The notes: generated by a model from the sequence alone, not told the origin. A DNA stretch of 64,000 bases from Candidatus Moanibacter sp. (GCA_965215885.1 CBDCEW010000097.1:100234-164233), one strand, 5' to 3'; positions 25,529 through 49,259 are shown, counted from the stretch's first letter. Translations and numbers: made by a program.

Positions 25529-25587
25529 TTTGATCCGACCAGCCCACACGCCGGGGATCGCACTGACTTTCCAAATGCGATGGATCC

Positions 25588-29290: not shown

Positions 29291-29746
29291 GAGACGCGGA
29301 GACGCGGGGATGCGGAGACGGGGAGAGGGGGATGCCGATGGATCTTCCGTCTAATGATAAACGAGATCGAAAGTCGATTTCGGACAAAGACCCGAAAGAG
29401 AAAACGGAATACTCTCTGTCCCTTTCGCGCTTTTTCGCGTGTTTAGCGGGCATCACTCTTTTCCTCTTTTTCACGCTCCCTTCTTTGTCCCGGCTTGCCG
29501 GGACAAAGTGAAGAAGGGAATCCGGTTGGAACTTCCCGTCGTGATCATAATCGTGATCTAAATTCGAAAGCATTGCGCCTGAGTCCGTTCATATTCGTAG
29601 CGGAATCCGCCTGCCTCGGCGTAGCTCTGCCGCAAGGCAAAGCAAAGCGAAGACGGGGGAGGATTTCGGGTTTGGTAGGAAAGGATTCAGATTATTCATC
29701 AGTAGTGATCCTGTCGTGCCCATCAAATTCAGGGGCGTGCAGCCAT

Positions 29747-31970: not shown

Positions 31971-34259
31971 GTGCATCTCACATCAACCAGAACTGGATGG
32001 ACAGTGCCTCTCTGGTTTCTGACTCCGTTCATTTTGTTGACTCAGGCGGACCTCGGTCAATCGGCGACAGATCCGGTCGATCGATATATCGGTTGGAATC
32101 ATTGGCGCGGACCTGAAGAGAATGGGACTTCACGTGAAACGAGTCTTCCGGATGACTGGAGTTTGGAAGGGAGGAATCTGCTTTGGACTTATGATATTTC
32201 GGGAGGGGGAACACCGGTTGTCGCAAATGAGCGCGTCTTTGTGTTCGGATACAGGGGAGAAGGTTCGGATCTTCAGGAGGTGCTTCTCTGCCTGAATGCC
32301 CAGACGGGAGAGCGTATCTGGGAGCGACGGTTCAGCGACTTTCTGAGTGACATCGTTTATAATCGCTATGCTATCGGCTCTCCCGCGATCGACCCGGAGA
32401 CGGGAAATGTCTATCTGTTAACCAGTGCAGGCCTCCTTTTGGGAATTAGCTGGGACGGGGAAGCGCTCTGGGAACGCTCCATGATGGAGGAGTATGGACG
32501 CCTTACGTTTCCTAACGGTCGTACAGGAAGCCCGTCAATTGCGGGGGATCTTGTAATCGTTCATGGTATCACGACGGCCTGGGGCAAGCTCGGACCTGCG
32601 CGGGACCGCTACTATGCTTTCGAAAAGAAGACCGGCGATCTGGTGTGGGCATCCCAGCCCGGGGTTCAGCCAAAAGACAGCTCCTTTACTCCGTTAACGT
32701 TTGGCTGGTTGGATGGGCGCAGGGTATTCTATTCCGGTACCGGGTGCGGAAACGTAGTCTGTGTCGATGTATTTACGGGTCAGCCCCTTTGGCGTTTTCA
32801 GCTCTCTCGAGGCGGAATCAATTCGGCAGTCCTGTTAGCGGGAGAAGATCGAGTGGTAGCGATTCACGGCAAAGAGAATCTCGATACATCCACCATTGGA
32901 GGGATGGTGGCGTTGAAGGTACCGCGCAGTATTCCGGAAGACACCAAGCTGCCGCTCGTGCTGGGCGAGGAGGCTGTTCTCTGGCGAAATGAACTCGAAT
33001 CATTTACCAGTTCGCCCGTGCTTCACGGCGATCGAATCTATCAGATCGTGCGAACGGGGGAACTGAAGAGTGTCGATCTTAATTCCGGAAGGGTGGAATG
33101 GTCGTTAAAGCTCTCGCAGGATCAATTGCACGCATCACCTCTGTGGGCGGACGAAAAACTCTACGTGCCGATGTTGGACGGCGGATTCTATATCATTCGT
33201 CCCGGGGAGAGAGATGCTGAAGTAATCAGTAAAGTTCAGCTGGAGGGAAACTGTAATGGTGCGCCTGCCGCTTACGGTGGACGAGTATTCGTACTAACAA
33301 AAAAGAAGCTCTATTGCTTTGGCTCGGTGGAGCGGCCAGTCGCCAGAGAGAGCGTCAGGCCCGTTCTGATTCGATCCCAACGGCCCGGTGCGTTACAAAT
33401 TGTTCCCGCGGAATTCGCTGGCAGTCCCGGATCCAGTATCGAATTATTCACCGTCGAATGGAGTGATTTCGGCGGAATCCGTAAGCTCGAGCAACCCCTT
33501 GCATGGTCTGGATTGAACTCCAAAACGGGTGTGATAAACTCTTCCGGGCGGCTCACAATTCAAAGGGACGCAAAGGTCTCCGCTATTACTTTAACCGGGG
33601 AATCCAAAGATCGACGGGGGAGGGTGCGAGGGCGAATTCTACCCAATCTTCCCTACGCGGAAGATTTTAATTCCTCTAATCTGACTGAAAATTCACCAAA
33701 GGGGTATGCGTTCTCTTATCCGCCTGCGCCGTGGTTGGGGGCGCGGTTGCGTTGGCAGATAATTGAACACGGAAGTGAAAGGGTCCTGGCAAACACTCTC
33801 GAGCGCGTTTTGTTTCAAAGAACTACGACATTTATCGGGCACCCTGATATGAGCGACTATATCATGCAGGCGGACGTCATGAGCGACGGCAATAGACGGG
33901 TGCTTTCAAATGTCGGCATCATTAATCAGAGGTATAATGCCTCCCTCATAGGAAACTGGCAGATTCTCGAAATCGTATCGAACCATGATCGGCTGAAAGT
34001 CTCCGTGCCTTTTGAATTTAGAGCTTCTGTGTGGTACCGCCTGAAGATGAAGGTCGAAACCGAGGCAGACGGTAGCGGGGTGATTCGGGCCAAGGCTTGG
34101 GAGCGGAGTCTACCTGAACCTGACGAATGGACGATTGAAGCTCTCCACATAAACGCACATCGAAATGGATCACCTGGACTCTACGCCTTCTCTCCGCAAA
34201 GCCAGAAACGCGTCTACGTTGACAATATTGTTGTTACCCCGAGTGGCCGAAAAGAGTAG
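31971..34259 (+). CDS. Secreted PQQ-like beta-propeller protein with an extra C-terminal beta-sandwich domain
   Basis: Signal peptide; WNHWRGP; repeated S/TP...G.V...D..TG...W motifs. Confidence 0.88.
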   Translation: MHLTSTRTGWTVPLWFLTPFILLTQADLGQSATDPVDRYIGWNHWRGPEENGTSRETSLPDDWSLEGRNLLWTYDISGGGTPVVANERVFVFGYRGEGSDLQEVLLCLNAQTGERIWERRFSDFLSDIVYNRYAIGSPAIDPETGNVYLLTSAGLLLGISWDGEALWERSMMEEYGRLTFPNGRTGSPSIAGDLVIVHGITTAWGKLGPARDRYYAFEKKTGDLVWASQPGVQPKDSSFTPLTFGWLDGRRVFYSGTGCGNVVCVDVFTGQPLWRFQLSRGGINSAVLLAGEDRVVAIHGKENLDTSTIGGMVALKVPRSIPEDTKLPLVLGEEAVLWRNELESFTSSPVLHGDRIYQIVRTGELKSVDLNSGRVEWSLKLSQDQLHASPLWADEKLYVPMLDGGFYIIRPGERDAEVISKVQLEGNCNGAPAAYGGRVFVLTKKKLYCFGSVERPVARESVRPVLIRSQRPGALQIVPAEFAGSPGSSIELFTVEWSDFGGIRKLEQPLAWSGLNSKTGVINSSGRLTIQRDAKVSAITLTGESKDRRGRVRGRILPNLPYAEDFNSSNLTENSPKGYAFSYPPAPWLGARLRWQIIEHGSERVLANTLERVLFQRTTTFIGHPDMSDYIMQADVMSDGNRRVLSNVGIINQRYNASLIGNWQILEIVSNHDRLKVSVPFEFRASVWYRLKMKVETEADGSGVIRAKAWERSLPEPDEWTIEALHINAHRNGSPGLYAFSPQSQKRVYVDNIVVTPSGRKE

Positions 34260-34297
34260 CCCAGCAAGCCAGGATCGGTCTTTATGACTCTTTTGAA

Positions 34298-35851
34298 ATG
34301 AACTCATTTTTCAGAATCAGCTTATTCCTGGTGGTAGCTACGTTATCGCCATCCGGACAGGGTGCCGAATGGCCGATGTGGGGGCGCGACCACACTCGCA
34401 ATATGGCCTCGCCCGTTCGCAACCTGCTTGACGAATTCGATCCAGGAGAACCAATCGAAAATAGCGAGGAGATAGACCCGGCGACTACCAAAGGCGTGCG
34501 ATGGGTGGCAAAATTGGGTTCTCAATCCTACGGAAACGTGTCCGTTGCTGGTGGAAAAGTATTCGTCGGCACGAATAACGAGACGCCGAGGGATCCCGAT
34601 ATTGTTGGCGATCGTGGGGTCGTCATGTGTTTCGATGAGCGTTCGGGAGAATTACTCTGGCAGCTGATTGTTCCTAAACTTGGAGCGGGCAAAGTAAGTG
34701 ACTGGGAGTATATTGGAATCTGTTCTTCGCCCGCCGTTGTAGAAGATTCAGCCTACGTTATTACAAACCGGGGCGAGGTCGTTTGCCTGGATGTAAATGG
34801 ATTGGGCGATGGAAATTCCGGACCTTTTATGGATGAAGGAATTTATATGGCAGGACCGGGAAAAGATCCCGTGGAGGTAAAAAATCAGCATGCCGATATC
34901 GTTTGGACATTTGATATTCGCGACGAACTTGGAGTGTTTCCTCACAATATCACGAGTAGCTCCGCACTCGTTGTCGATCAACGGTTGTATACTTCGACCT
35001 CTAACGGAGTCGACTGGTCTCACACTAATATTCCGGCTCCGTTTGCGCCTAGTCTTATCGTACTCGACAAGAAAAATGGGGGGCTAATCGGCGAGGAGAA
35101 TACAGGGGTCAGCCGGCGGTCACTTCACGCCAGCTGGTCATCGGCAGCCTATGGTGTGGTGAATGGTAAAGGAATGATCATTTGGGGTGGCTCGGACGGT
35201 TGGTGCTATGGTTTCGCTCCAGCCCCCGAGAGAGGAGAGGACGGGCTGAGCTACCTCAAGGAGTTATGGCGATACGATTGTAATGCGCCGGACTATCGGT
35301 CCAAGGATGGCAAACCGATCCGGTATGCTACCTATGGAGGTCCGAGTGAGGTCATCGCCACGCCGGTCTTCTACAATGGTCGTGCCTATGTATCGATCGG
35401 CCAGGATCCGGAACATGGTGACGGAGTGGGCCGGTTGAGTTGCATCGATTTGACAAAACGAGGCGATATAAGTCGAGACGGCGCGGTGTGGACCTACCGG
35501 GACATCGGGCGGAGTATATCAACCGTCTCTATTGCTGAAGGCCTCCTCTACATCGCTGAATATGCCGGAAAGATTCATTGTCTTGACGCCGATACCGGCG
35601 AACGTTTCTGGGTTCATGAAACAGACAGTCGTATCTGGGGTTCCACTCTCGCAGCTGATGGTAAAGTCTACGTCGGCACGGAGGATGGAGATCTCGTCAT
35701 TCTGAAATCGGGTAGAGAGCGGAAACTGCTTAACCAGATTCATTTTGGCTCTCCAATCTATAGTACTCCAGTGGCGGCCAACGGCGTACTGTATGTTGCC
35801 ACTCAGAGCCATCTCTATGCCATAGGCGATGACCATGAAACAGGACCCTGA
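34298..35851 (+). CDS. Secreted PQQ-like beta-propeller protein
   Basis: Signal peptide; EWPMWGRDHTRN; propeller repeats. Confidence 0.88.
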   Translation: MNSFFRISLFLVVATLSPSGQGAEWPMWGRDHTRNMASPVRNLLDEFDPGEPIENSEEIDPATTKGVRWVAKLGSQSYGNVSVAGGKVFVGTNNETPRDPDIVGDRGVVMCFDERSGELLWQLIVPKLGAGKVSDWEYIGICSSPAVVEDSAYVITNRGEVVCLDVNGLGDGNSGPFMDEGIYMAGPGKDPVEVKNQHADIVWTFDIRDELGVFPHNITSSSALVVDQRLYTSTSNGVDWSHTNIPAPFAPSLIVLDKKNGGLIGEENTGVSRRSLHASWSSAAYGVVNGKGMIIWGGSDGWCYGFAPAPERGEDGLSYLKELWRYDCNAPDYRSKDGKPIRYATYGGPSEVIATPVFYNGRAYVSIGQDPEHGDGVGRLSCIDLTKRGDISRDGAVWTYRDIGRSISTVSIAEGLLYIAEYAGKIHCLDADTGERFWVHETDSRIWGSTLAADGKVYVGTEDGDLVILKSGRERKLLNQIHFGSPIYSTPVAANGVLYVATQSHLYAIGDDHETGP

Positions 35852-36056
35852 TACTCGGCGTGTTTTCGCATATCTCTTTTTGGTGTTACTGTTTATTTTC
35901 CACCAGGACTTCTGGTTGTGGAAAAACGGTACACTTGTGTTTGGCTTTATTCCCGCCGGTCTTGCCTATCATATGGCATTTTCACTGTTGTCGGCATTGG
36001 CCTGGTATCTAGCGGTTCGCTTTGCCTGGCCGGCTGAATTGGAAGAAGGTCAATGA
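35829..36056 (+). CDS. Small two-TM membrane protein (DUF3311-like SSS partner)
   Basis: HQDFWLW...LVFGFIPAGLAYH; lies upstream of the SSS gene. Confidence 0.8.
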   Translation: MTMKQDPDTRRVFAYLFLVLLFIFHQDFWLWKNGTLVFGFIPAGLAYHMAFSLLSALAWYLAVRFAWPAELEEGQ

Positions 36057-36272
36057 AAACTCCCCGTCCCGACTAGCCATGGACGGCGTATCTAACACTT
36101 TCGCCATTTGGATAGAATTTGCCTATGCTTTACTCGAAGTTTTTACGAACGTCCCCGGAGGGGCCGTTCCACCACGAGCATCCTTGCTACTGGTGGATCG
36201 GGCGCTCCGCGCACGATGATGCTTGAGAAAGTCAGTGACCCCGTCCCGGCGTGCCGGGACAGGGAATTACCA
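36052..36272 (+). repeat. Hairpin-ended ~220-bp element (PATE-like), copy B
   Basis: Hairpins at both ends; homologous to 23724-23917. Confidence 0.8.
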
Positions 36273-36286
36273 AGTTAAAGAAGACG

Positions 36287-37786
36287 ATGACTCCATTGAT
36301 AATAATTGCCGGCTACCTGCTCCTCCTATTCGCTTTGGGGCAGCTGAGCGGTCGCTACTTTCGCGGCACGACGAGCGACTTCTTCGTCGCGAGCCGTTCT
36401 ATCGGTCCGTTTGTTCTCCTGATGTCGATATTTGGCACGACGATGACGGCATTTGCAATGGTTGGGAGCACGGGAGAAGCCTATCGGGTGGGAATCGGTC
36501 CTTACGGATTGATGGCATCCTGGTCCGGCCTGATCCACTCGGGTTGCTTTTTCTTCATCGGATTAAAGCTCTGGTCGATCGGCCGAAAGCACGGTTACCA
36601 CACGCAGATTCAGTTTTTTCGGGAGAGATTTGAAAGCAATGCCATCGGTTATCTCCTGTTTCCCATCCTCGTCGGACTCGTGATCCCCTACCTCCTGATT
36701 GGACTGCTGGGAGCCGGAATTCTGCTGCGGGCTGTTACGGTTGGTGCCTTTCCAGAGTTATTTCCGGACACCCGTGGTGCGATTCCACCTTGGCTGACAG
36801 CGGCAGTGGTGTCTCTTGTCGTTTTAACCTATGTCTGCCGGGGTGGAGTCCGGAGTGCGGCCTGGGCCAACACATTTCAAACTCTCATTTTCATGGCGAT
36901 GGCACTGTTCGCATTTTTTGTGATAGCACGAGAACTGGGAGGCCCGGTTGCGGCCACTCAGGCTGCGGACCCGAGTAAGCTGATCCGCGAGGGAAATATG
37001 TCACAGGTGCAATTTTTTACCTATTGCTTCATTCCCCTCTCGGTGGGCATGTTTCCCCATCTTTTCCAACATTGGCTCACCGCACGATCGGCCAAGACTT
37101 TTCGACTGACCCTCGTCGCGCACCCTCTCTGCATTATGATTACCTGGATTCCTTGTATACTTATTGGATTGTGGGCGACCGGCGCGATGAAACATGGCGT
37201 TCCGGTCATCTCGGAAGGGGTCAGTCCTAACGCGGCCCTAGGCCTCATGGTAGGGAAATTGACTGACCCGCTGATCGGCGGGCTCGTTGCCGCGGGCGTT
37301 CTCGCCGCCATCATGTCATCGCTTGATTCTCAGTTTGTTTGTCTTGGCACGATGTTTACTCAGGATGTTGTCCTCCACGCCTGTGGACGCGATCGTTTCT
37401 CGGACCGCCAGGTGGTGATGATGGCGCGAGGATTTATTTTCCTGATAGTATTAATCACATTCGGCTTCTCCCTCTTCGAGCCGCGTCAGATCTTTGCTCT
37501 AGGAGTCTGGTGCTTCAGCGGGTTTGCCTCCCTCTTTCCACTCGTATTCGCGTCGCTTTACTGGAAACGCGTTACTCGCGCGGGGGCTCTGTCGGGTATT
37601 GTTGCTGTCGCTCTCGCCTGGTTTTTCCTCTTTCGCGCTTCCGGATATGGGGCGCAACGCGAATTTCTGATCGCTGGCGCGATGCCAGTAGTCTTCATTT
37701 TTTTGGCGGGTGCGCTCGTTCTCGTCGTCGTGTCCCTTTTTACAAGTCCGCCCGAGGAGAAGACCATTCGAAAGTTTTTCGCGTAG
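36287..37786 (+). CDS. Sodium:solute symporter family protein
   Basis: Many TM helices; FFVASRSIG, GGVRSAAWANTFQ and AAIMSSLDSQ. Confidence 0.93.
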   Translation: MTPLIIIAGYLLLLFALGQLSGRYFRGTTSDFFVASRSIGPFVLLMSIFGTTMTAFAMVGSTGEAYRVGIGPYGLMASWSGLIHSGCFFFIGLKLWSIGRKHGYHTQIQFFRERFESNAIGYLLFPILVGLVIPYLLIGLLGAGILLRAVTVGAFPELFPDTRGAIPPWLTAAVVSLVVLTYVCRGGVRSAAWANTFQTLIFMAMALFAFFVIARELGGPVAATQAADPSKLIREGNMSQVQFFTYCFIPLSVGMFPHLFQHWLTARSAKTFRLTLVAHPLCIMITWIPCILIGLWATGAMKHGVPVISEGVSPNAALGLMVGKLTDPLIGGLVAAGVLAAIMSSLDSQFVCLGTMFTQDVVLHACGRDRFSDRQVVMMARGFIFLIVLITFGFSLFEPRQIFALGVWCFSGFASLFPLVFASLYWKRVTRAGALSGIVAVALAWFFLFRASGYGAQREFLIAGAMPVVFIFLAGALVLVVVSLFTSPPEEKTIRKFFA

Positions 37787-37900
37787 CGGTAATTCCCTGT
37801 ATCTGTGGCTGAATGGCTGCTGATGTGAAACTCTGATTTGCTTGTGGGTTGGCGACCGATTGATTACAATGATTTTATGATGGGAACTGGCTTGGAAAGA

Positions 37901-37960
37901 ACCCACCCCTGGCCCCTCCGTGGAGGGGATAACCCACCCCTGCACCTCCCGGGAGGGGAA
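37901..37960. repeat. Tandem pair of ACCCACCCCT...GGAGGGG hairpin repeats
   Basis: Two units visible directly upstream of ORF 37969. Confidence 0.65.
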
Positions 37961-37968
37961 CTTGATCA

Positions 37969-39057
37969 ATGAGTTCAGAGACTCAATCCATGAAGAGTGA
38001 GATAGAGAAGGCAGTCGAAGCGCTCGACGTCCATACGCGCGAAATCGTGGAATGGCATTTTTCTCCAGACACGGGAACTCCCTTCTGGCTCAACTGGGCT
38101 GCCGGTCAGGATTGGAATCCGGCTGACGAAATTCAGACATTTAGTGACTTGAGGCGTTTCCCACACTTTGAAGACGTGTGGTTGAGAGACGAACCTAACG
38201 AGAGCTGGATACCGAAGGCCTATCGAGGAAAGCCGTTTAAAGTTTTCGAAACCGGTGGCACCACCGGCCTTCCCAAGCAGCGCCTCAGTTGGGAAGATCA
38301 TCTCATCGATTATGACGAATTTTCCAGGGAACTGGATGAGGATGCATTTCCGTTTGGTGGCAACTGGCTCATGCTTGGACCAACCGGACCGCGCCGGCTT
38401 CGAATTGCGATTGAACACCTGGCGAACAGCCGGGGAGGGATATGCTACTTCGTCGACCTCGATGCTCGGTGGGTTAAAAAGCTGATTGCCTCGAGAAATT
38501 TCGATCAGGCAAACGCTTATAAAGACCACGTCGTTGAACAGGGTGTCCAATTAATCAGACACCGGAATATCTCCTGTCTCTTTACGACGCCAAAACTCCT
38601 TGAAGCGCTGGGAGAGCGACTCTCTATAGCTGATCTGGGAGTTAAGGGAGTCTTCTGCGGAGGAACTACGATGTCGCCGCAGGTGGTAAGGTTTCTCATC
38701 GAAGAAGTGCTCGAGAATCGAGTCTCTCTCGTACCTACTTACGGCAATACCCTTATGGGACTGGCACGCAGTCGGCCGCTTCGGCCGGAGGACGGGTATA
38801 GCGTGACCTATGCTGCGCCGCAACCGCGGGCTGTCTTACTGGTAGTTGATAAAATGGATCCGGAAAGGCAGGTGGAATATGGTGAGTGTGGTCGAGTCGA
38901 ACTTACGACGCTGACGAAGGAATTCTTCATGCCGCGATTCCTGGAACGCGATGAGGCCATCCGTCGTCCTCCTTGCCCCGGTTTTCCCTGGGATGGTGTA
39001 GGTGAAGTGCGGCCTCTCGGGAGTATGGAGAAGGATGTGGTAGAAGGAGTATACTAG
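37969..39057 (+). CDS. Truncated AMP-forming ligase-like protein (GriC/EhpF-like)
   Basis: Motifs WHFSPDTGTPFW, FETGGTTGLPK, PTYGNTLMG and ERD; lacks the C-terminal subdomain of full ligases. Confidence 0.75.
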   Translation: MSSETQSMKSEIEKAVEALDVHTREIVEWHFSPDTGTPFWLNWAAGQDWNPADEIQTFSDLRRFPHFEDVWLRDEPNESWIPKAYRGKPFKVFETGGTTGLPKQRLSWEDHLIDYDEFSRELDEDAFPFGGNWLMLGPTGPRRLRIAIEHLANSRGGICYFVDLDARWVKKLIASRNFDQANAYKDHVVEQGVQLIRHRNISCLFTTPKLLEALGERLSIADLGVKGVFCGGTTMSPQVVRFLIEEVLENRVSLVPTYGNTLMGLARSRPLRPEDGYSVTYAAPQPRAVLLVVDKMDPERQVEYGECGRVELTTLTKEFFMPRFLERDEAIRRPPCPGFPWDGVGEVRPLGSMEKDVVEGVY

Positions 39058-39292
39058 GAAGTTTGTTGAATCGTAACTAAAGCGGGGTCACAGAGCGTCA
39101 CAGAGAACCAGGGAGAGCTGAACAGAAGGAAACACAGAGAGAAACTGAGAATAGAAGCCGAATCCTCCGGGCGCGCCAGGATCTGGAAACATCTTTCGAC
39201 GTGAGGTCGATCGGGATCAGCATGACCGCGGATTTCACGGATGGCACGGATAGAGAGAAGAATTAGATCTAGCAGTCGCAAAATGGAGAATA

Positions 39293-39470
39293 GGGAGTCG
39301 ATCCAGCTGAGCGGAACCAACTCGCTTATGCGAGTCGAGAAACGCGAAGAAGAGCTTTCCCAAAAGCGCTATTCGTGGTTTAAAATGCATTCGCGCTCTT
39401 GGAAAAGCTCTTCTTCGCGTTTCAGGCTCTGCCCTACAGCAGAGTAGTCCCGCTCAGCTGGATCGACTCC
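39293..39470. repeat. Long imperfect inverted repeat (MITE-like)
   Basis: GGAGTCGATCCAGCTGAGCGG...CCGCTCAGCTGGATCGACTCC with inner GAAACGCGAAGAAGAGCTTT / AAAGCTCTTCTTCGCGTTTC. Confidence 0.85.
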
Positions 39471-39977
39471 TACCTCGGCCTATAGTATGGGCAATTTCCT
39501 GCTTTCCTTATTCAAATATCAATCTGTGGTCCATTGAGATTTTCTTAGCGAGACTAGAAAAGGGCGAACAAATTCTTTTCGGAGAAACAGAACAATATAT
39601 CTTGAAACTCAACGGGTTATGTTATCGGTTGAGAATTTTCTTCTTACGAAAACAAACCTTTTTGAGTTTGTAGTACAGAGGACCTGCGAGAATGGTAGTT
39701 GGAAATATTGTTCTGTTCCTAAGAATAGGCTGTTCTACCAAGAAAATTGCGATTGATCACCAAATACTCAGATGCCACAGACAAAGCATTACCGATTCGT
39801 TCCCCATCCGTGGTACTGCGGAGCCATCCGTGGGTTACTCTTCTTCACGTATTTCTCTCCGTTTCTCTCTCCTGCCCTGAGCCCCGTCGAAGGAGTTTCC
39901 TTCTGTTCAATTCTCTTCTGCACAGAGGGACCAAACAGTTTCGTTGTGGCCTCTGGCTGTCTTAGGATTCCCAACGC

Positions 39978-41411
39978 TTGAAAAACCAGCATATACCCGC
40001 TTTGCGTCGGGGCCTACCCTACGAGAGTCTTGATACCTTAGAGCTGGCCAGTCTTCAAGGAAGTCGGGCGCTTGCGAAAATCAGCTTGGTTAATTCCGGC
40101 CTGATAAAGCGCGATTTGACGAAAATTGGGAAGAGCCGGGAGGTTCTGTCAGAAATACCAGTAGCGAAGCTTTTGAACATTTGCACCGAAGCGGCCGACC
40201 AATTTCTCCAATCAGACTTGCCGGGAGGAACCGATTCTGAGTTGCAGAAGCCCGAGGATTATGTGCGTTTACTCTCCTCAACCACCGGATTACCTCATAC
40301 TTTGTGCCGGGCGAATATGGCAAAGGTATACGATGTCCTCACCAACATGGAAACTATCCTCGGTGGGTTGACGCGCGGCTTGGACAATGAGATTCTGGAT
40401 AGCGGTTACGGTCGAGAAGACGAGTATGAGTTAAGCTTTTGTCCGGCTACTGACTGCCTCGGCGTCGTGCTGCCGAGCAATTCGCCTGGGGTTAATTCCC
40501 TTTGGTTACCTGCCGTCCCTCTGAAAATCCCCGTCGTTCTCAAACCGGGCCGTGAAGATCCCTGGACACCGTATCGAATCGTTCAAGCTCTTCTCGCTGC
40601 CGGGTGCCCTCCCGATGCATTTTGCTTTTACCCAACCGACCATGAAGGTGCAGATGCGATCTTGAGATCCTGCGGGAGAGCGATAATATTCGGAGATGAC
40701 AACACTGTGAGACAGTATTCGGGTCGACCGCATGTCCAGGTCCACGGTCCCGGGAGGAGTAAAGTGCTGATAGGCGAGGACTGGTCGGATCGATGGTCTG
40801 AGATTGTCGATCTTCTTGTGGAATCGATCGCCGGAAATAGCGGGCGCAGTTGTATAAACGCCTCTTGCATCATGACGCCGAGAAATGCGGATGCAATCGC
40901 TGACGCGGTTGGCCAAAGATTGTCGGATATCAGGCCACTTCCACCGGAAAACGAGAGAGCAGAATTGGCGGGATTCGCCAATCCCGATGTGGCGCACGCC
41001 ATTGAAAACAGGATCGAATCGGGTCTTGCCGTCGCTGGCGCTGAAGATGTCACGACAAAATTTCGAAATGGACCGAGAGTAGAATCGGCAAATGGGCAGA
41101 CCTATCTGATGCCCACCCTGGTTCGTTGCGGAGATATCAACCACCCGTTGTCGAACACCGAGTTTCTCTTTCCGTTTGCGAGTGTGGTGGAGATTCCTCA
41201 GGACGAGATGCTCGCACAGATCGGTGAAACCCTTGTTGTAACCGCGGTAACCGATAACAGTGACTTCATTCGAGAGCTCTTGCGTTCCCCGCTAGTTGAC
41301 CGACTCAATATTGGCCCCGTGCCTACCAATAGAGTGCAGTGGGATCAGCCTCACGAGGGAAACCTCTTTGACTTCCTTTACCGGAGGCGAGCCATCCAGC
41401 GGGCATTATGA
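39978..41411 (+). CDS. Aldehyde dehydrogenase-fold protein (GriD-like)
   Basis: Motifs VLPSNSPG, VLKP, HGPGRSK, SGRSCIN (catalytic Cys) and EFLFP. Confidence 0.85.
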   Translation: MKNQHIPALRRGLPYESLDTLELASLQGSRALAKISLVNSGLIKRDLTKIGKSREVLSEIPVAKLLNICTEAADQFLQSDLPGGTDSELQKPEDYVRLLSSTTGLPHTLCRANMAKVYDVLTNMETILGGLTRGLDNEILDSGYGREDEYELSFCPATDCLGVVLPSNSPGVNSLWLPAVPLKIPVVLKPGREDPWTPYRIVQALLAAGCPPDAFCFYPTDHEGADAILRSCGRAIIFGDDNTVRQYSGRPHVQVHGPGRSKVLIGEDWSDRWSEIVDLLVESIAGNSGRSCINASCIMTPRNADAIADAVGQRLSDIRPLPPENERAELAGFANPDVAHAIENRIESGLAVAGAEDVTTKFRNGPRVESANGQTYLMPTLVRCGDINHPLSNTEFLFPFASVVEIPQDEMLAQIGETLVVTAVTDNSDFIRELLRSPLVDRLNIGPVPTNRVQWDQPHEGNLFDFLYRRRAIQRAL

Positions 41412-42568
41412 AGCCATTCGAAATCAGACCGATGCCGCGGCTTATCTTTGGAGATGGTTCCGTTGAGCGGGTAGGGAGCGTGGCGGTTGAGATGGGATGT
41501 AGAGTTGCCCTGCTCGTAACCGATCCGGGAATTGTAGCGGCCGGCCACACTGAGTTTGTCGAGAAGTCCCTTCAAGAGGCAGGGATTGAGGTAACGGTTT
41601 TCAGTGGAGTCGTGGAGAATCCGACAACACGGGAAGTGTATCAATGCGTCGAGGCGGCGCGGAGTGCGAATGTCGACACAGTAATCGGTCTTGGAGGTGG
41701 GAGTAGTATCGATACCGCTAAAGGGTGCAACTTTATCCACACTAATGGAGGAAGGGTGCAGGATTACCGCGGTTTCGGAAAGGCGCAAAAGGAGATGCTG
41801 CCGTTCATGGCCATTCCTACGACCGCTGGGACCGGAAGCGAGTGCCAGTCGTATGCGCTTATCAGCGACGTGGATACCCATGAGAAAATGGCGTGCGGAG
41901 ATACCAAGGCAATGGCGACAATTGCGATCCTCGACCCGGCCCTCACTTACACCCAACCCAGATCAGTAACCGCCTCGAGCGGTATCGACGCCTTGGCACA
42001 TAGTCTTGAAACCGCGGTTACCCGAACTCGCAATGAATTCTCATCGCAGTTTTCGCTTCAAGCTTTCCGAATGATTGAATCTAACCTGGAAAAGGTACTG
42101 AACAATTCGAACGATAGGGAAGCACGAGGGGCGATGCTGCTGGGAGCGGCCTACTCCGGATTCGCTATTGAGAACAGTATGTTGGGTTGCGCCCATTCCA
42201 CCGCTAATCCTCTTACGGCGCGCTTCGGATTAACTCACGGACATGCGGTGGGACTGATGTTGCCACACGCAATGAGGTTCAATGCCAAAGATCCCTCTAC
42301 GCTTTCCATCTACGTCCGCTATGCAATTTCCGCCGGCCTGGCATCTGACAGAGATGATCTTGCTGACGCCGGCAAACATCTTATTGATCGAGTGAGCAAC
42401 CTGATGAAGCTGACAGGTCTGAGCGTGTCTCTTTCCGAGTGTCAGGTAGATCGGGATAGTATACCAGAGCTTGCTGTCGAAGCGTCGCGACAGTGGACTG
42501 CCGGGTTCAATCCCCGTCCGGTAAGTGAAGATGATTTTGTCCACCTCTATGAAGCGGCTTGGGAATAA
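41408..42568 (+). CDS. Iron-containing alcohol dehydrogenase
   Basis: Motifs GLGGGSSIDTAKG, PTTAGTGSE, DALAHSLE and AHS...HGHA. Confidence 0.95.
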   Translation: MKPFEIRPMPRLIFGDGSVERVGSVAVEMGCRVALLVTDPGIVAAGHTEFVEKSLQEAGIEVTVFSGVVENPTTREVYQCVEAARSANVDTVIGLGGGSSIDTAKGCNFIHTNGGRVQDYRGFGKAQKEMLPFMAIPTTAGTGSECQSYALISDVDTHEKMACGDTKAMATIAILDPALTYTQPRSVTASSGIDALAHSLETAVTRTRNEFSSQFSLQAFRMIESNLEKVLNNSNDREARGAMLLGAAYSGFAIENSMLGCAHSTANPLTARFGLTHGHAVGLMLPHAMRFNAKDPSTLSIYVRYAISAGLASDRDDLADAGKHLIDRVSNLMKLTGLSVSLSECQVDRDSIPELAVEASRQWTAGFNPRPVSEDDFVHLYEAAWE

Positions 42569-42581
42569 TCTTAAATATTTG

Positions 42582-43814
42582 ATGATCAGGAAATTACAAA
42601 TCGGTTTCGCCCTTAACCCGAAAATCTGTGAGATTTTCGGGTTAGCGTCTTTCTTGCTTCTGACGTTTCTCTTGGACGCCGGGGCCGATGAACCTTCTGT
42701 AAAGGAGGAAGGTGAAGATTCGGCAGTTTCCTCCTGGCCGATGCATAGAGGGGGTCCGCAACTTTCGGGGCGTGCCGCTGTGAAGATTGCCGACGCCATA
42801 GAACTCGTTTGGACGTTTGATACTGGCCAATCGGTTTACTCTTCGGCGGCAATCGAAGACAGGAGAGTGTTTGTCGGTTCAAATTCAGGAAAAGTCCATG
42901 CCCTCGATCTCAAATCCGGAGAGGAACTCTGGTCATTTTCAACCGGTGGTCCGGTGGAGGCCACTCCCTGCCTGATCGAGGGTATCGTTTATGTGGGCTC
43001 TTCCGACTCGGTCTTTTACGCATTGGACGCGGCTTCGGGCGAACTACGATGGAAGTTTCAAACGAGTGATCGAATTCTGGGAGGAGCTAATTGGACACGA
43101 ATTCCAGAATTTTCCAGCAACTTGATTCTGTTCGGCAGTTACGACGGCAGCGTTTATTGTCTTGATGCCGTTAAGGGAGATGCGCTCTGGAAATACTCGA
43201 CCGGCAGTTTTGTGAACGGAACTCCGGCGATCCTGTCGGGTGGACGGGCCGCAATCGGTGGCTGCGATAATTTCATATACGTGATTCGGATAAAGGATGG
43301 AGAGCCGCTCGAGAAAGTCGACACGGAGGCCTATATCGCGGGTTCCATTGCGGTATTTGAAGGAAAAGGATACCTCGGCCATTATAGTAATGCGGTAATC
43401 GCTTTCGATACGGACACAGCCGATATTCTCTGGACCTATAACAGCGGTAGTTTTCCTTTCTTCTCTTCGGCCGCCGTCACTTCGACGAATGTTCTGATTG
43501 GGGGACGTGATCGCCTTCTTCATTGCCTCGACCGTGATAGTGGTAGAAGCGTCTGGACCTTTCAGACAAGAGGCCAAATCGACAGTTCTCCGGTCGTCGG
43601 TGAAGAAAGGGTCGTTTTCGGTTCGAATGATGGGCGCCTCTACGCTGTCGATCTCTCGAATGGCGGGGAAGTCTGGAGCTACGAAGTAGGCGCTCCCCTT
43701 GTTTCGTCACCCGCTGTGGTTGATGGCTGGATAGTGATCGGCTCGGAAGACGGCAAGGTGTATGCATTCCGGGGGAAAGCACTTCGTCCCGCTGAGCGGG
43801 ATCAGGGCGGGTGA
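42582..43814 (+). CDS. PQQ-like (BamB-type) beta-propeller protein
   Basis: WPMHRGG plus repeated SSP...V.VGS.DG..YALD..SG...W. Confidence 0.9.
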   Translation: MIRKLQIGFALNPKICEIFGLASFLLLTFLLDAGADEPSVKEEGEDSAVSSWPMHRGGPQLSGRAAVKIADAIELVWTFDTGQSVYSSAAIEDRRVFVGSNSGKVHALDLKSGEELWSFSTGGPVEATPCLIEGIVYVGSSDSVFYALDAASGELRWKFQTSDRILGGANWTRIPEFSSNLILFGSYDGSVYCLDAVKGDALWKYSTGSFVNGTPAILSGGRAAIGGCDNFIYVIRIKDGEPLEKVDTEAYIAGSIAVFEGKGYLGHYSNAVIAFDTDTADILWTYNSGSFPFFSSAAVTSTNVLIGGRDRLLHCLDRDSGRSVWTFQTRGQIDSSPVVGEERVVFGSNDGRLYAVDLSNGGEVWSYEVGAPLVSSPAVVDGWIVIGSEDGKVYAFRGKALRPAERDQGG

Positions 43815-43890
43815 AAGCTCTTCGGCTCACTCAGCGGGATCGGGACAGGAGATTGTCGGGGACGAGGGAAGTAAAAGTGGTGAGTGTGAG

Positions 43891-45174
43891 ATGAACATTG
43901 TCTTCATAACTCCGGGAACGGGCAACTATTACTGTGGGGTGTGCATGCGGGATAACGCTCTCGTCCGAGCCTTAATGGGGTCAGGCGAAAACGCTGTGAT
44001 GCTTCCCATGTATTTGCCTATTATGACGGACGAGCCATCGGTGGCGGATGACTCGCCCTTGTTCTTTGGCGGTATAAACGTCTACCTCCAACAGAATCTG
44101 TCCCTCTTTCGGCACACTCCGGTCTGGTTCGACCGCGTATTCGACACACCCTGGTTGCTCAGTCTGGTCGGCCGGCGGAGCGGTATGACGGATAGTTCCG
44201 TTCTTGGTGAAATTACGGTTTCGATGCTGAAAGGGGAATCCGGCAAGCAGGTTAAAGAGATTGACAAGCTCGTCGACTGGTTGGTGCGGAATCTGGCGGT
44301 CGATATCGTATTTCTATCCACCATCCTGCAGGCTGGTCTGACCCGTTCTCTGAAAAAAGCGCTTTCCGTTCCGGTCCACTGTTTTCTACAGGGTGAAGAC
44401 ATCTTCCTCGACAGTCTTAACGCGCCTTATGCGGAGCAGGCATGGTCAACTCTCAAGTCTCGCGCCTTGGATATCGATCGGTTCATTGCACCGAGTCATT
44501 TTTTCGCGGATGTTATGCAGAGGCGTCTTGGGATCGAAGATGAACGAATTTGCGTCATACCCAACGGCATCACGATAGAGGGTTACGACTCAGCGTTAAA
44601 AACGCCTGATCCGCCCGTAATCGGCTATCTTGCACGCCTCTCGAAAACGAAGGGACTTGGGACCCTTATCGAGGGTTTTATTCTGTTGAAGAGTCGAGGG
44701 CGATTTCCAACCTGTCGCCTCGAGGTGGCGGGAACCGTCACAGGCGGCGATCTGATTTACATCGATTCGCAGAAAAAGAAGCTGGATGAGGCAGGACTCG
44801 GTGGAGAGGTACGGTTTCGTTTCAATATCAGTAGGGCGGAAAAGTCGGATTTCTTGCGGCGCCTGACACTTTTCTCCGTGCCGGCTCATTATGGAGAGGC
44901 CTTTGGACTCTACCTGCTTGAAGCGATGGCTTCGGCCTTACCCGTTGTGCAGCCTAACGTATCTGCTTTCCCTGAAATCGTCAATGCGACAGGCGGAGGG
45001 ATACTGTATGAACCCGATACTCCTGAGGCCTTAGTTGATTCGTGGGAATCACTCCTGGCCGATCCTGAGTTGGCGAGAGAGATCGGAATGCGTGGGAGGG
45101 AATCAGTCCTGGCGAACTTCACGATCGAGGGTATGGCGGAAACTATTGTAGGCGGTTTGAAGGAACTGGAATGA
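43891..45174 (+). CDS. Glycosyltransferase family 4
   Basis: EAFGLYLLEAMASALPVV; N-terminal YCGVCMRDN. Confidence 0.92.
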   Translation: MNIVFITPGTGNYYCGVCMRDNALVRALMGSGENAVMLPMYLPIMTDEPSVADDSPLFFGGINVYLQQNLSLFRHTPVWFDRVFDTPWLLSLVGRRSGMTDSSVLGEITVSMLKGESGKQVKEIDKLVDWLVRNLAVDIVFLSTILQAGLTRSLKKALSVPVHCFLQGEDIFLDSLNAPYAEQAWSTLKSRALDIDRFIAPSHFFADVMQRRLGIEDERICVIPNGITIEGYDSALKTPDPPVIGYLARLSKTKGLGTLIEGFILLKSRGRFPTCRLEVAGTVTGGDLIYIDSQKKKLDEAGLGGEVRFRFNISRAEKSDFLRRLTLFSVPAHYGEAFGLYLLEAMASALPVVQPNVSAFPEIVNATGGGILYEPDTPEALVDSWESLLADPELAREIGMRGRESVLANFTIEGMAETIVGGLKELE

Positions 45175-45377
45175 TGGGCGAGCGATAATCCCGTTATCTT
45201 GGCGACATTCCTGTCGGACCCCAAATCGGAAAGATTCCGAGTTATCAGTGAGCTATTCTGCAGATCTACCTTTACTGGATATGATATAATACCCACTATT
45301 CGATCATTCCACCATTCCGATCTTCCGGAACGACTCGGAAGAGATATTCGAAATCCAAGCACGGAAGAACTCGTACC

Positions 45378-45905
45378 ATGACCTGGCTCTATTACGCATT
45401 TATGACCGTCCTTTTCTGGGGATTCTACGGAGTGCTCTTGCATGGAGGGCAGATCAATATGTCAGACCCTGTAAATGGGCGCTACAAAGCCTTTCTTTTT
45501 GTCGGCGTCGCCTACTTCTTAACGGCAATACTGGCGCCATTGATCCTATTAAAAGTCAACGGAGCCACTTGGAGCTTCCCCAACAGGGGAATGGGCCTGT
45601 CGCTCGCGGCCGGAATCGTGGGCGCCGCCGGTGCGTTCGGTGTGTTGCTGGCGTTTGGCGCAAAAGGATCTCCAGCCGTCGTCATGACGATCGTCTTCGC
45701 GGGCGCGCCTATTGTGAATGCGATAGTCGCGATGCTGCTGCACCCTCCCGCCGGTGGCTGGACCGCAATCCGCTGGCCCTTCTACTTCGGCATCATGCTG
45801 GCCGCTCTCGGCGGCGGTTTGGTGACGCTCTACAAGCCTCCCCCGGCGCCGGCCGCTCATCAGGCTTCCGTAGATACCCTTAAAATGGAGGAGGAGGCAG
45901 ACTAA
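45378..45905 (+). CDS. Membrane protein (EamA/DMT-like half)
   Basis: Five hydrophobic segments; FWGFYG and VFAGAPIVNA. Confidence 0.75.
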   Translation: MTWLYYAFMTVLFWGFYGVLLHGGQINMSDPVNGRYKAFLFVGVAYFLTAILAPLILLKVNGATWSFPNRGMGLSLAAGIVGAAGAFGVLLAFGAKGSPAVVMTIVFAGAPIVNAIVAMLLHPPAGGWTAIRWPFYFGIMLAALGGGLVTLYKPPPAPAAHQASVDTLKMEEEAD

Positions 45906-46045: not shown

Positions 46046-46900
46046 CTACGAAGTCAGGGCAGAATTCAAAGCGAAGGTTCTTTCATATTCGATCTCAGAG
46101 GCACGCCTAACGCCGTGTTGCTCGACCCACTCGCGTAGGGGCCGGCTGTCAATCTGGGAGTTCGATTGCCGCAAAGCGCCAATCAACTGCCTGCCGATGG
46201 GTTCGCGAAACCTTTCCAAGACATCCTCGGTCTGCACGACGAAGTCATTGGGGGAAAGCCAGGCATAGGAATAACCGAACATCAAAACTTTGCGAGTCTG
46301 TTGAGTGCGGTTAGCGCCTCCACGGTGAAAGGTTCGATTCTCGAAGAGAAACGCATCACCCGCTCGCAATTGCGGTTCAAATGCATTCGCGGGATCCGTC
46401 TCACCCGCGGGAATTTCAAGCGGTCGGGTGTAGTTATTGCTTCCGGGTGCAAGCCAGGTATTTCCGCTATCCGGCACCATGACATCACTCAAATGATAGG
46501 CGATCTTGATCTCGAGCCGGGCATTGCGTGCCGGACCCAGATCATCGGAACTGTTTGCGACATCACGGTGCCAGTAAGTGGGATCCGGCGTTTCCGGCAG
46601 ATCCGGGTACTTGTAAATCAAGTGCGCCTTTGTCAGTCGGATATTGTAGCTGAGCAATTGAACCACCAGCGGCACGGTCGTGCCCCAGGTTAGCAGAGGA
46701 ATGAATTCATCCTCCTGCGCAATTACGTTCGAGAGACTGGCACGGCGCCCACCCGATTCGAGGTAGCGTTGGGATACCAATCGATCCGCCGCCCCGACAA
46801 CGCGCTGAAGCATCTCTTCATCCAACGCTTCGCGCACAATCAGATATCCATTTTCGTCGAAAAACTGCCGATGCTCTTCGGTCAGTTCGATAAACTTCAT
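46046..46900 (-). CDS. Phytanoyl-CoA dioxygenase (PhyH) family protein
   Basis: Motifs FFDENGYL, WHRD, GDAFLF and FHRGGAN; true start MKFIEL at 46900. Confidence 0.9.
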   Translation of the reverse strand: MKFIELTEEHRQFFDENGYLIVREALDEEMLQRVVGAADRLVSQRYLESGGRRASLSNVIAQEDEFIPLLTWGTTVPLVVQLLSYNIRLTKAHLIYKYPDLPETPDPTYWHRDVANSSDDLGPARNARLEIKIAYHLSDVMVPDSGNTWLAPGSNNYTRPLEIPAGETDPANAFEPQLRAGDAFLFENRTFHRGGANRTQQTRKVLMFGYSYAWLSPNDFVVQTEDVLERFREPIGRQLIGALRQSNSQIDSRPLREWVEQHGVRRASEIEYERTFALNSALTS

Positions 46901-47086
46901 GGAACACACTCGTACTATACAAGCGGCACAGCAGTCAAACCAATACCGTGCCACAGGAAAGAAAAAGAAATGGTTGGTCTTGTCGTTAGGCGATGGTGCG
47001 CGGGGTGGAATGGGATCACTTCGATCTGCGAGACTTACCGCATTTATAATTTGACTTTGGAAGACAGAATAGGGACCAAAGAGCTG

Positions 47087-47866
47087 ATGCAAATCAGCAA
47101 GGAGCAGAGCAGGCAATTTGATAAAGAGGGGTATTTCATTCTGGAACGGGCTATGCCGGATGAGATGCTGCAGATGCTGAGAGAGGAATGCAGCTATTTC
47201 CTCGGCCGAAAAGACCAGGAAATGGATGACAAGGGCGAAGACACGATCGGGATCACGCACAAGCGGAAGCGCTATTTCATATCCCAACTCTATCGCAAGA
47301 GTCCTCGCCTCTGGCGCTTCATCTACTCCGACTTGATGGCCGAAATCTGCCGAGCTACATTGGGAGAAGAGGCCTATCTCTTCAACGAGCAGTGGGTAGT
47401 AAAGGGCACCGAAGTAGGAATGAAATTCGGCTGGCACCAGGATTCGGGTTACGTCAAGTTCCGCGATCCCCAGACGAAGCACAAACCTTATCTGAGCTGC
47501 TGGGCTACGCTCGATGACGTCGACGAGACCAACGGGACCGTTTATCTGCTGCCGCATTCCCGTGCGGGAACAAAGAACTGCATCCATGATCACAAGCGCG
47601 AAGAGGGAACGAATGATCTCATCGGTTACACCGGGGAGGACCCCGGCATCGTGGTCACTGCCCCGGCGGGTTCGGTGGCCTGCTTTTCCAGCACTACATT
47701 TCACCGCAGCGGGGCCAATACGACCCACCTCATGCGCCGCGTTTACCTGACGCAATATTCGGCCGAACCGATCGTGGACAGTGGCGGCACCCTATGGGGA
47801 CAGGCGGTGCCGTTTGTGAAAGGCGGGGCCAATGTCTACGACCCGAATGAGGACGATCTGGAGTAG
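47087..47866 (+). CDS. Phytanoyl-CoA dioxygenase (PhyH) family protein
   Basis: Motifs FDKEGYF, WHQDSGY, ETNGT and FHRSGAN; true start at 47087. Confidence 0.92.
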   Translation: MQISKEQSRQFDKEGYFILERAMPDEMLQMLREECSYFLGRKDQEMDDKGEDTIGITHKRKRYFISQLYRKSPRLWRFIYSDLMAEICRATLGEEAYLFNEQWVVKGTEVGMKFGWHQDSGYVKFRDPQTKHKPYLSCWATLDDVDETNGTVYLLPHSRAGTKNCIHDHKREEGTNDLIGYTGEDPGIVVTAPAGSVACFSSTTFHRSGANTTHLMRRVYLTQYSAEPIVDSGGTLWGQAVPFVKGGANVYDPNEDDLE

Positions 47867-49223: not shown

Positions 49224-49259
49224 AGCGATTCCTTCTTGTGTCCTACAATTCGTGAGAAT

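Follow-up and report, generated by a model that had tools for sequence, protein, structure and literature searches.

Pairs of a truncated adenylating protein and a protein of the aldehyde dehydrogenase (ALDH) fold are known from the biosynthesis of aromatic compounds. In the grixazone pathway, GriC and GriD convert 3-amino-4-hydroxybenzoate into the aldehyde through the acyl-AMP, according to PMC10179220. In the phenazine cluster of Pantoea, the position after ehpF is named ehpG in a published table (PMC11278526). Here, we describe a cluster of ten genes at positions 31971-45905 of a 64,000-nt stretch of DNA from Candidatus Moanibacter sp. (GCA_965215885.1 CBDCEW010000097.1:100234-164233), which is called the window in the following. 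An earlier note on this DNA had compared an adenylating protein and an ALDH-fold protein of the cluster to the GriC/GriD-EhpF arrangement, and homology to both EhpF and EhpG was indeed found. The ten genes, which we tentatively read as the reducing arm of a machinery of the cell envelope, are a fragment of a system of 18-20 genes that is contiguous in relatives and conserved over four phyla. No paper on the cluster was found in the literature searched, which consisted mostly of open papers.

A system conserved over four phyla

The gene of the EhpF-like protein has at least 572 confirmed places in a collection with one genome per species. The best 80 of these loci, all from other species, were surveyed, with the counts of distal genes bounded by 10-kb flanks and contig ends, and families present in at least 4 of 81 loci were taken as recurring. 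The 80 loci (55-69% identity) belong to Verrucomicrobiota, Planctomycetota, Armatimonadota, Acidobacteriota and unassigned bins. Among the neighbours of the EhpF-like gene are propeller A in 51 and propeller B in 54 loci, the ALDH-fold gene in 39 and the iron-containing alcohol dehydrogenase (Fe-ADH) gene in 29. If only loci with 7 kb or more of upstream sequence are taken, propeller B lies beside the EhpF-like gene in 46 of 58, and among loci with 5 kb or more downstream the ALDH-fold gene does so in 28 of 49. The cluster is not a chance grouping, and the synteny, for which the earlier note had proposed such a survey, is conserved across loci of other species. Longer loci add genes for a HemN-like radical SAM protein, a chorismate-lyase-like protein of 176 aa, a flavin halogenase-like protein, a 4HBT thioesterase and a PaaK-like ligase. 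In the genomes G001, G234, G227, G309 and G343 one contiguous run encodes propeller A, propeller B, a DUF3311 protein, a sodium:solute symporter (SSS), the EhpF-like protein, the ALDH-fold protein, Fe-ADH, propeller C, the radical SAM protein, the lyase-like protein, the halogenase-like protein, a family 4 glycosyltransferase (GT4), the thioesterase, a drug/metabolite transporter (DMT) protein and the PaaK-like ligase, and in G234, G309 and G343 the mapped run extends into an ATP-binding cassette (ABC) ATPase and an FtsX-type permease.

In the host genome the parts of this system lie at three places. Besides the cluster itself, contig C64 carries at 22036-26528 the radical SAM, lyase-like, halogenase-like and PaaK-like genes in the order of the intact operons, and the ABC ATPase, the permease and a TonB-dependent receptor are located at 57955-64000 of the window, 12 kb downstream of the cluster. 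The LolD-like ATPase is the orthologue of the gene after the PaaK-like gene in intact operons, and the TonB receptor is linked in some genomes, among them G234, where it lies at the operon (48%), and it is also found beside the loci L026 and L027 (30%). The FtsX-type permease gene comes after GT4 and the ABC ATPase in the aryl and the Fe-S version (see below) alike. An orthologue of the 4HBT thioesterase was not found in the host genome, which is 90% complete. The features of the system in the window are the following:

31971-34259, plus strand: propeller A, 762 aa, 8-bladed and PQQ (pyrroloquinoline quinone)-like, likely secreted (Pfam PQQ_2, 93 bits)
34298-35851, plus strand: propeller B, 517 aa, 8-bladed, likely secreted, with invariant His/Asp/Asn/Glu loops
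35829-36056, plus strand: DUF3311 small membrane partner of the symporter, 75 aa (Pfam DUF3311, 37.3 bits, cut-off 30)
36287 (ATG)-37786, plus strand: SSS (Pfam SSF, 118.6 bits)
37969-39057, plus strand: EhpF/GriC-type truncated adenylating protein, 362 aa (PDB 3hgu, EhpF, E 1e-46)
39058-39977, no strand: 920-nt non-coding gap with dispersed palindromic repeats (repeat analysis), outside the system
39978-41411, plus strand: EhpG/GriD-type ALDH-fold acyl reductase, 477 aa (27% to the ehpG-position gene)
41408-42568, plus strand: Fe-ADH, 386 aa (Pfam Fe-ADH, 169 bits; below all NCBIfam cut-offs)
42582 (alternative start 42525)-43814, plus strand: propeller C, ACSF4/AASDH-type (Pfam Beta-prop_ACSF4, 236 bits, cut-off 133)
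43891 (alternative start 43762)-45174, plus strand: GT4 with N-terminal CxxC-x-RD motif (Pfam Glycos_transf_1, 95 bits)
45378-45905, plus strand: DMT/EamA-like half transporter, 175 aa, predicted exporter (Atlas neighbours)
57955-58650, plus strand: LolD-like ABC ATPase (59% to the G234 copy; TIGR02211, 253 bits, cut-off 308)
59109-62471, plus strand: FtsX/MacB/LolC-type permease, 1120 aa, core gene (50% to the G234 copy; Pfam FtsX)
62850-64000, plus strand: TonB-dependent receptor, continuing past the window end (48% to the receptor at the G234 operon; Pfam Plug)

Open reading frame (ORF) calling and family scans gave ten ORFs at 31971-45905, all on the plus strand, and thereby bore out the ten co-oriented genes described before. 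Several of these had also been called abutting or overlapping. This holds for the ALDH and Fe-ADH ORFs, which overlap by 4 nt in ATGA, and for propeller B and DUF3311, which overlap by 23 nt, whereas tight packing is otherwise broken by intergenic gaps of about 180-230 nt and by the repeat-filled gap of 920 nt inside the reductase pair. The same two genes are less than 130 nt apart in G001, G234, G232 and G227. The 920-nt gap holds 11 inverted-repeat pairs, and single positions match up to 35 places in the genome; the idea that the gap hides a gene or RNA was rejected, as the ORF list and the repeat analysis show short ORFs and dispersed repeats only. Palindromic dispersed repeats occur in tens of copies in the host genome and many insertion sequence (IS) families in dozens, and the loosening and splitting of the operon is attributed to this IS-rich and repeat-rich genome. 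A nested long hairpin is located at 39294-39470 within the gap, and palindromic repeat families also occur at 36057-36285, 37870-37968, 57290-57520 and 58651-58950, with up to ~110 genomic matches. Five IS-like elements (1-2378, 7676-8995, 9626-11215, 18290-21246 and 21986-23616) have many near-identical copies on other contigs, so the host genome has undergone a large IS expansion. The 175-aa membrane protein at the end of the cluster has no match in Pfam or NCBIfam; its Atlas neighbours are named as DMT permeases, and the nearest Pfam-bearing cluster carries EamA in 27% of its members (score 0.93).

The reductase pair and the importer

In the family scans the adenylating protein is a weak AMP-binding match and its partner a divergent ALDH. 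The adenylating protein aligns with residues 23-362 to residues 27-369 of EhpF (PDB 3hgu), i.e., over nearly the full length at E 1e-46, both sharing the C-terminal motif V-x-EGVY, and it is 31% identical to the copy on a Pantoea plasmid. The ALDH-fold protein is 27% identical to the product of the gene after ehpF in the Pantoea phenazine cluster (pairwise E 9e-42), while solved ALDHs are matched at E 1e-7 or weaker; a plasmid search gave 8e-34 for the ehpG-position gene and 4e-8 or weaker for ordinary ALDHs. C292, N168 and H256 are invariant in 27 of 27 aligned rows, and this pattern aligns with EhpG. His256 occupies the position of the general-base Glu, which in ALDHs hydrolyses the thioester intermediate. 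A site that lacks this Glu and retains the Cys fits acyl transfer and reduction, in keeping with the earlier proposal that an acid is reduced. In a tree of 23 rows, the EhpF-like protein of the window and 17 relatives form a clade of their own (support 99/97), and the proteins from Pantoea, Burkholderia, Streptomyces and haloarchaea stand outside it on long branches; Streptomyces proteins annotated as 'arylcarboxylate reductase' match at 34-36%. Judged by these alignments, the reductase pair alone is a further member of the known EhpF/EhpG kind. None of the phzA/B,D,E,F,G or griH/griI genes occurs in the window flanks or in the recurring locus families, no whole-genome search having been made, and the remark that phenazine and aminohydroxybenzoate genes are missing nearby thus stands.

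Three further settings of EhpF-like genes were seen. A plasmid of Halalkalicoccus jeotgali (L102:6511-11335) has a haloarchaeal unit of SSS, EhpF-like protein, ALDH-fold protein and short-chain dehydrogenase/reductase (SDR) without biosynthetic neighbours, which resembles a minimal import-and-reduce module. On a plasmid of Streptomyces angustmyceticus (L099:6823-13044) the 'arylcarboxylate reductase' gene lies among the futalosine-pathway genes mqnE and mqnC and a dihydroxynaphthoate synthase gene, without an adjacent ALDH. At the Verrucomicrobiota loci L006, L007, L019, L021 and L022, the EhpF-like gene follows a MarR regulator gene at a distance from the propellers, with vanadium-haloperoxidase-like (DUF6851/VCPO) genes as neighbours.

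The importer slot is held by an SSS in 33 of the 80 loci and by a transporter of the major facilitator superfamily (MFS) in 9, and never by both (0/80). The MFS proteins are most like the aromatic acid/H+ symporters of TIGR00895, below the cut-off. The SSS symporter can therefore be predicted to import an aromatic acid, which would agree with the imported carboxylic acid of the earlier note. Importer, Fe-ADH and acylating ALDH site are reversible in principle, and the enzymes could also run oxidatively and catabolise an imported aromatic alcohol through the aldehyde to an acyl thioester, a direction with which the haloarchaeal unit would be compatible. However, the adenylating enzyme and the chorismate-lyase-like, halogenase-like and radical SAM genes point to synthesis and reduction, and ring-cleavage genes do not recur in the 80 loci, which makes such a catabolic role highly unlikely.

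Joint inheritance of the aryl genes and the probable substrate

Presence and absence of the genes around the EhpF-like gene (aryl genes) were recorded in 41 relatives, 121 Planctomycetota and 201 genomes from the host's own phylum. The 6 EhpF-positive genomes among the 41 relatives are the same 6 that have a halogenase-like orthologue at 61% or more, and 4 others have only matches at 34-36%. Among the 121 Planctomycetota, both orthologues mark the identical 25 genomes. For the EhpF-like protein, 37 matches were obtained at E 1e-30, of which the 25 with at least 50% identity were counted and 12 at 30-37% dropped; halogenase-like orthologues were called at E 3e-93 or better, and 4 weaker matches (6.5e-66 or worse) dropped. 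The chorismate-lyase-like gene is present in 17 of the 25 aryl genomes and in 0 of the 96 others, and propeller B in the 25 plus 2. Since the aryl genes lie far apart in G274, G294, G311 and G359, with megabase separations in several genomes, their joint inheritance is not due to linkage alone. In the host's own phylum the EhpF-like gene is patchy and was found in only 4 of 201 genomes.

The substrate had been called unknown; it is narrowed by the chorismate-lyase-like, PaaK-like, halogenase-like and radical SAM genes on C64. Because these genes belong to the system, the substrate is likely a tailored 4-hydroxybenzoate. The 176-aa protein, which scores just under the Pfam cut-off for Chor_lyase, is a probable chorismate lyase; its Atlas clusters carry PF04345/PF01947 in 11-19% of their members (scores 0.95-0.98). 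The flavoprotein on C64 has only halogenases as top PDB matches (8zop, CndH 3e1t, ChlB4 and PltA; E 1e-52 to 3e-47) and shows the motifs GGGPAG (GxGxxG) and WFWYIP (WxWxIP), with a score below the CmlS cut-off. Halogenases of the CndH/PltA type act on tethered substrates, and this would account for the CoA ligase and the thioesterase being encoded in the same operon. For the radical SAM protein, HemN and NocN are the nearest relatives. That the enzymes of the cluster reduce a 4-hydroxybenzoate derivative from the acid to the alcohol is, judged by their families, probable.

The same genes could also form a carrier-free secondary-metabolite cluster, from which a halogenated aromatic antibiotic or signal is exported as for baaAB, with the propellers as immunity or binding proteins. 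A chorismate lyase beside a halogenase is the baaAB arrangement, which is proposed to make a dibrominated anisic acid in a planctomycete (10.1101/723874), and annotated EhpF/EhpG pairs occur in phenazine and p-aminobenzoate-type clusters. For such a cluster, however, a single copy with 55-74% identity over four phyla would be atypical, as would be the co-inheritance of unlinked genes and the replacement by a redox chain, which is described below; we regard this as very improbable.

A glycosyltransferase core with two alternative redox modules

The unusual CxxC ascribed to the GT4 is present as YYCGVCMRDN, with both Cys invariant in 10 of 10 aligned orthologues, and was matched in 29 loci, with aryl genes or with an Fe-S module alike. 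The GT4 occurs in 33 of the 121 Planctomycetota, i.e., the 25 aryl genomes and 8 EhpF-negative ones, and in 18 of the 201 own-phylum genomes, 14 of them EhpF-negative. In EhpF-negative genomes its usual companions are propeller C, the ABC ATPase and the FtsX-type permease. The Fe-S module, which often lies next to it there, comprises an NHL protein, a twin-arginine 4Fe-4S ferredoxin, a NapH-like membrane protein, a further propeller, a NuoE/NuoF fusion and a GltD-like flavo-Fe-S protein. The NapH-like gene was found in 13 of the 121 Planctomycetota, namely 8 with GT4 only, 4 with aryl genes, and G316, in which no GT4 was found. Each of the 33 GT4-positive Planctomycetota carries the aryl or the Fe-S module, and 4 carry both. 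In the host's own phylum, where the idea was tested once it had been formed, 12 of the 14 GT4-positive, EhpF-negative genomes have the NapH-like gene, and in G137 the NuoEF/GltD-like genes lie beside the GT4 at a contig end, making 13 of 14 with an Fe-S module; in the remaining genome, G140, none was found. The NapH-like gene is also present in G197, which has half a GT4, and the Fe-S module was not found in the host genome. As the GT4 is found with either aryl or Fe-S genes, it is taken as part of a propeller/ABC core that is fed by either module. By this distribution, GT4, propeller C and the LolD/FtsX ABC transporter are a separate core with two alternative redox modules. In G158 (L087, L131) the genes of the aryl module are rearranged, and the GT4 shows the motif variant typical of Fe-S genomes. 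Furthermore, some Fe-S loci (L109:12018-18730, L108, L107, L118-L119) contain a terpenoid block with genes for a ferredoxin-like protein, a radical SAM protein, a squalene-cyclase-like protein, a DUF116-polyprenyl synthase and a prenyltransferase toroid.

No EhpF-like gene was found in 8 of the 33 Planctomycetota with this CxxC GT4 and in 14 of the 18 such genomes of the host's own phylum, which argues against the idea, put forward in the earlier note, that the GT4 glycosylates the aryl alcohol. In the full form of this idea, the GT4 would glycosylate the alcohol, the ABC transporter or the DMT protein would export the glycoside, and the propellers would take it as cofactor or ligand, with the Fe-S version making another acceptor, perhaps a terpenoid. 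The GT4 gene lies between the halogenase-like and thioesterase genes in intact operons, the TonB receptor and the symporter suggest uptake of a vitamin-like compound, and squalene-cyclase-like and polyprenyl-synthase genes are present in some Fe-S loci. Moreover, pqqC (TIGR02111) was not found in G000, in a search whose positive control was silent as well, and TenA/PqqC-family genes number one in G000 and none in G001 or G235. However, GT4s of a single family, sharing a conserved motif on the acceptor side, are found whether or not the aryl genes are there, and the DUF116-polyprenyl synthase does not take the place of the aryl genes, as 3 of 5 tested genomes with only the Fe-S module and also 2 of 5 aryl genomes have it. 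The glycoside is therefore considered unlikely, and the terpenoid genes, tried as a counterpart of the aryl genes and rejected, are treated as accessory.

The propellers

Propeller A is modelled as an 8-bladed propeller (AlphaFold2 (AF2) predicted local distance difference test (pLDDT) 90.3), with BamB at 16-18% identity as top Foldseek matches, and the strand pattern of the model can be read as two further all-beta domains, one Ig-like and one lectin-like. Propeller B is 8-bladed as well (AF2 pLDDT 90.4; Foldseek BamB template modelling (TM) score ~0.6, 16% identity). Its residues D113, W114, H194, N195, N214, D217, H220, H255, Q347, D348, E350, H351 and R383 (numbered from base 34364) are invariant in 40 of 40 rows, and by the strand pattern these loops would sit on one face of the model. 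They are likely a metal or catalytic site, and propeller B appears to be the best candidate for an outer partner of a shuttle. The Foldseek searches with A and B gave generic BamB/PQQ propellers only, and the complex prediction for A and B scored 0.07 and is not used as evidence. Against the BamB models TIGR03300/PRK11138 the window propellers reach 57, 59 and 158 bits, below the cut-off of 285, and against the PQQ-dehydrogenase models TIGR03075/TIGR03074 21-92 bits, below the cut-off of 480. Secretion, claimed for all three propellers, is suggested by their N-termini as read by eye, and the hydropathy scan flags C but leaves A and B unflagged. Propeller C adjoins the GT4 in EhpF-negative genomes too and is a core gene common to the Fe-S version. 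In animals, the ACSF4/AASDH propeller is fused to an adenylation domain; an old link between the fold of propeller C and adenylating enzymes is possible.

PF13360 propellers were counted as first-look candidates, at most 13 being scored per genome. All 18 GT4-positive own-phylum genomes have at least 14 candidates; 11 such genomes are among the matches listed for the 183 others, and 88 own-phylum genomes have no PF13360 match. Among the 41 relatives, EhpF-positive genomes have 6-62 PF13360 matches and EhpF-negative ones 0-8. An aryl product as the cofactor of all PQQ-like propellers was rejected, as many propeller-rich genomes lack the EhpF-like gene, and the GT4 core tracks the propeller expansion better than the EhpF-like gene does.

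This tracking would also be expected if the system matured a cofactor on the propellers themselves, with the flavoprotein acting like QhpG or LodB on a protein residue, the GT4 and ABC transporter handling the modified proteins, and the two modules supplying reductant or a building block. The flavoprotein matches the QhpG and LodB models below cut-off, and NapH/MauN-like proteins are known to accompany periplasmic quinoproteins. The nearest solved relatives of the flavoprotein, however, are carrier-dependent halogenases. It contains WFWYIP, and its distribution follows that of the aryl genes (25 genomes) instead of that of the GT4 core (33), so that we consider maturation distinctly unlikely.

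A possible reducing-power shuttle

Both modules combine cytoplasmic NAD(P)H redox chemistry with a route across the membrane. This route is built from importer, reductases and exporter in the aryl module, and in the Fe-S module from a polyferredoxin in the membrane and a ferredoxin that is exported. For this reason the aryl genes are read as a soluble shuttle of reducing power. The cluster would be the reducing arm of an envelope system, in which an aryl acid/alcohol shuttle carries reducing power to secreted propellers; on the present gene content we hold this for possible rather than probable. 4-Hydroxybenzoate would be made from chorismate by the chorismate-lyase-like protein, which is optional, or imported by the SSS or MFS transporter. 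The PaaK-like ligase would activate the acid, and halogenation would take place on the thioester; the HemN-like radical SAM enzyme would add a C-methyl group or make another C1 modification, and the 4HBT thioesterase would set the acid free. Then the EhpF-like protein would adenylate the acid, the EhpG-like protein take the acyl group onto Cys292 and reduce it with NAD(P)H, and Fe-ADH yield the benzyl alcohol. In the weakest step, suggested by the exchange of genes, the alcohol would leave through the DMT protein, serve propellers A and B outside the cytoplasm as a substrate for oxidation or as reductant, and come back as the acid through the symporter. GT4, propeller C and the LolD/FtsX ABC transporter would build or deliver a component common to the whole propeller family, and other bacteria would feed this core by a membrane Fe-S chain of NuoEF-like, GltD-like and NapH-like proteins and the twin-arginine ferredoxin. 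The broader view, that the core and the 'empty' propellers draw reducing power interchangeably from a cycled home-made halogenated benzyl alcohol or from an Fe-S wire, is rather doubtful. As to precedents, fungi run an aryl aldehyde/alcohol redox cycle of such a shape, according to PMC8140971, and a title in its reference list places chlorinated aryl alcohols of Bjerkandera in a redox-cycle role.

Several points weigh against the shuttle. Its activity, product and location are all read from genes, the Fe-S module could instead drain electrons from the periplasm, and homologues of propeller B (38-44%) are also found where the aryl module is missing. The NapH/MauN match is weak (48 bits, cut-off 213), and 6-7 of the 8 GT4-only Planctomycetota were the genomes in which the Fe-S module was first noticed, so this part of the count is not independent. 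In the propeller-rich genomes G035, G080 and G180 neither the GT4 nor the NapH-like gene was found, and the account does not cover the terpenoid genes beside some Fe-S loci. With regard to the substrate, the chorismate-lyase-like protein reaches 23.1 bits with Pfam Chor_lyase in 1 of 8 members (cut-off 23.6 bits) and has no PDB relative by sequence search, and the flavoprotein, which also matches QhpG (2e-34) and LodB (1e-30) below cut-off, could be a hydroxylase. Finally, the sampled genomes are kin and incomplete, and that of the host is 90% complete.

Other features of the window

The region 58862-62496, which includes the permease, is 99.9% identical to C52:44-3678, and 62957-64000, with the TonB receptor, is 99.7% identical to C79:62980-64023; these copies would be either a recent duplication or assembly redundancy. 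An inserted island on the minus strand at 48102-56846 encodes a BNR/sialidase-like protein, a GntR regulator, an ABC solute-binding protein-permease fusion of 1100 aa and a TonB receptor, and has a 77-80% paralogue on C2. PhyH-family dioxygenase ORFs overlap on opposite strands (46046-47755, minus; 46769-47866, plus). A short PQQ-like propeller remnant at 28931-29446 is probably a pseudogene.

Significance and comparison with known systems

Planctomycetota and Verrucomicrobiota often carry dozens of PQQ-like propellers, with up to 62 PF13360 matches per genome, and this expansion is here tied to one marker gene, the CxxC GT4, and two alternative redox modules. The system is broad, with the EhpF-like gene at the 572 or more places given above and in 25 of 121 sampled Planctomycetota. 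If the broader view above is true, the expanded 'empty' propeller families of both phyla would for the first time have a function, and a halogenated aromatic would act in bacteria as redox carrier or cofactor, not as an antibiotic; the system would also be a conserved natural origin of organohalogens and offer biocatalysis a carboxylate reductase that needs no carrier.

The closest described proteins are EhpF/EhpG of the D-alanylgriseoluteic acid (phenazine) cluster of Pantoea agglomerans, with EhpF structures PDB 3HGU, 3HGV and 3L2K. The window pair shares with them homology over the full length (31% and 27%), gene order, the EGVY and PH[DE]G motifs, the presence of the Cys and the absence of the Glu, but forms a separate clade and is accompanied by Fe-ADH, importer, propellers, GT4 and ABC transporter. 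GriC/GriD of the grixazone pathway in Streptomyces griseus are similar by description of their function, as an AMP-forming protein and a reductase acting on a hydroxybenzoate; unlike there, no griH/griI-type or phenoxazinone genes recur here, and the aldehyde would be reduced onward. A lyase-like gene beside a flavin halogenase is also found in bmp5/bmp6 and in baaAB (3,5-dibromo-p-anisic acid) of the planctomycete strain 10988, the latter a two-gene locus whose BaaB is ~44% like Bmp5 (10.1101/723874). By that description baaAB is set apart, since the halogenase of the present system is nearest to CndH/ChlB4/PltA and a CoA ligase, a thioesterase and the reductases are added. The propellers have the 8-bladed PQQ-like fold of BamB, the PQQ quinoproteins and the 'acido-empty-quinoprotein' TIGR04528, but stand apart from BamB and the quinoproteins in their low identity (15-18%), in scores far below the cut-offs and in the invariant His/Asp loops of propeller B. 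Similarly, the Fe-S module has a membrane 4Fe-4S protein and a twin-arginine ferredoxin like the NapGH/MauMN polyferredoxin pairs, yet scores far under the cut-off and has NuoEF-like and GltD-like proteins and propellers as partners, with no nap/mau genes. The proposed shuttle would be analogous to the fungal aryl-alcohol oxidase cycle, in which the cell spends NAD(P)H on reducing a small aromatic aldehyde, and the alcohol is oxidised again by a secreted enzyme (PMC8140971); unlike in fungi, there is no glucose-methanol-choline (GMC) oxidase here, and the secreted partners would be PQQ-like propellers known from their genes. Taken as a whole, the system is, by the gene families and scores given above, not a variant of phenazine, grixazone, BamB or PQQ-dehydrogenase systems, nor of any other system known to us.

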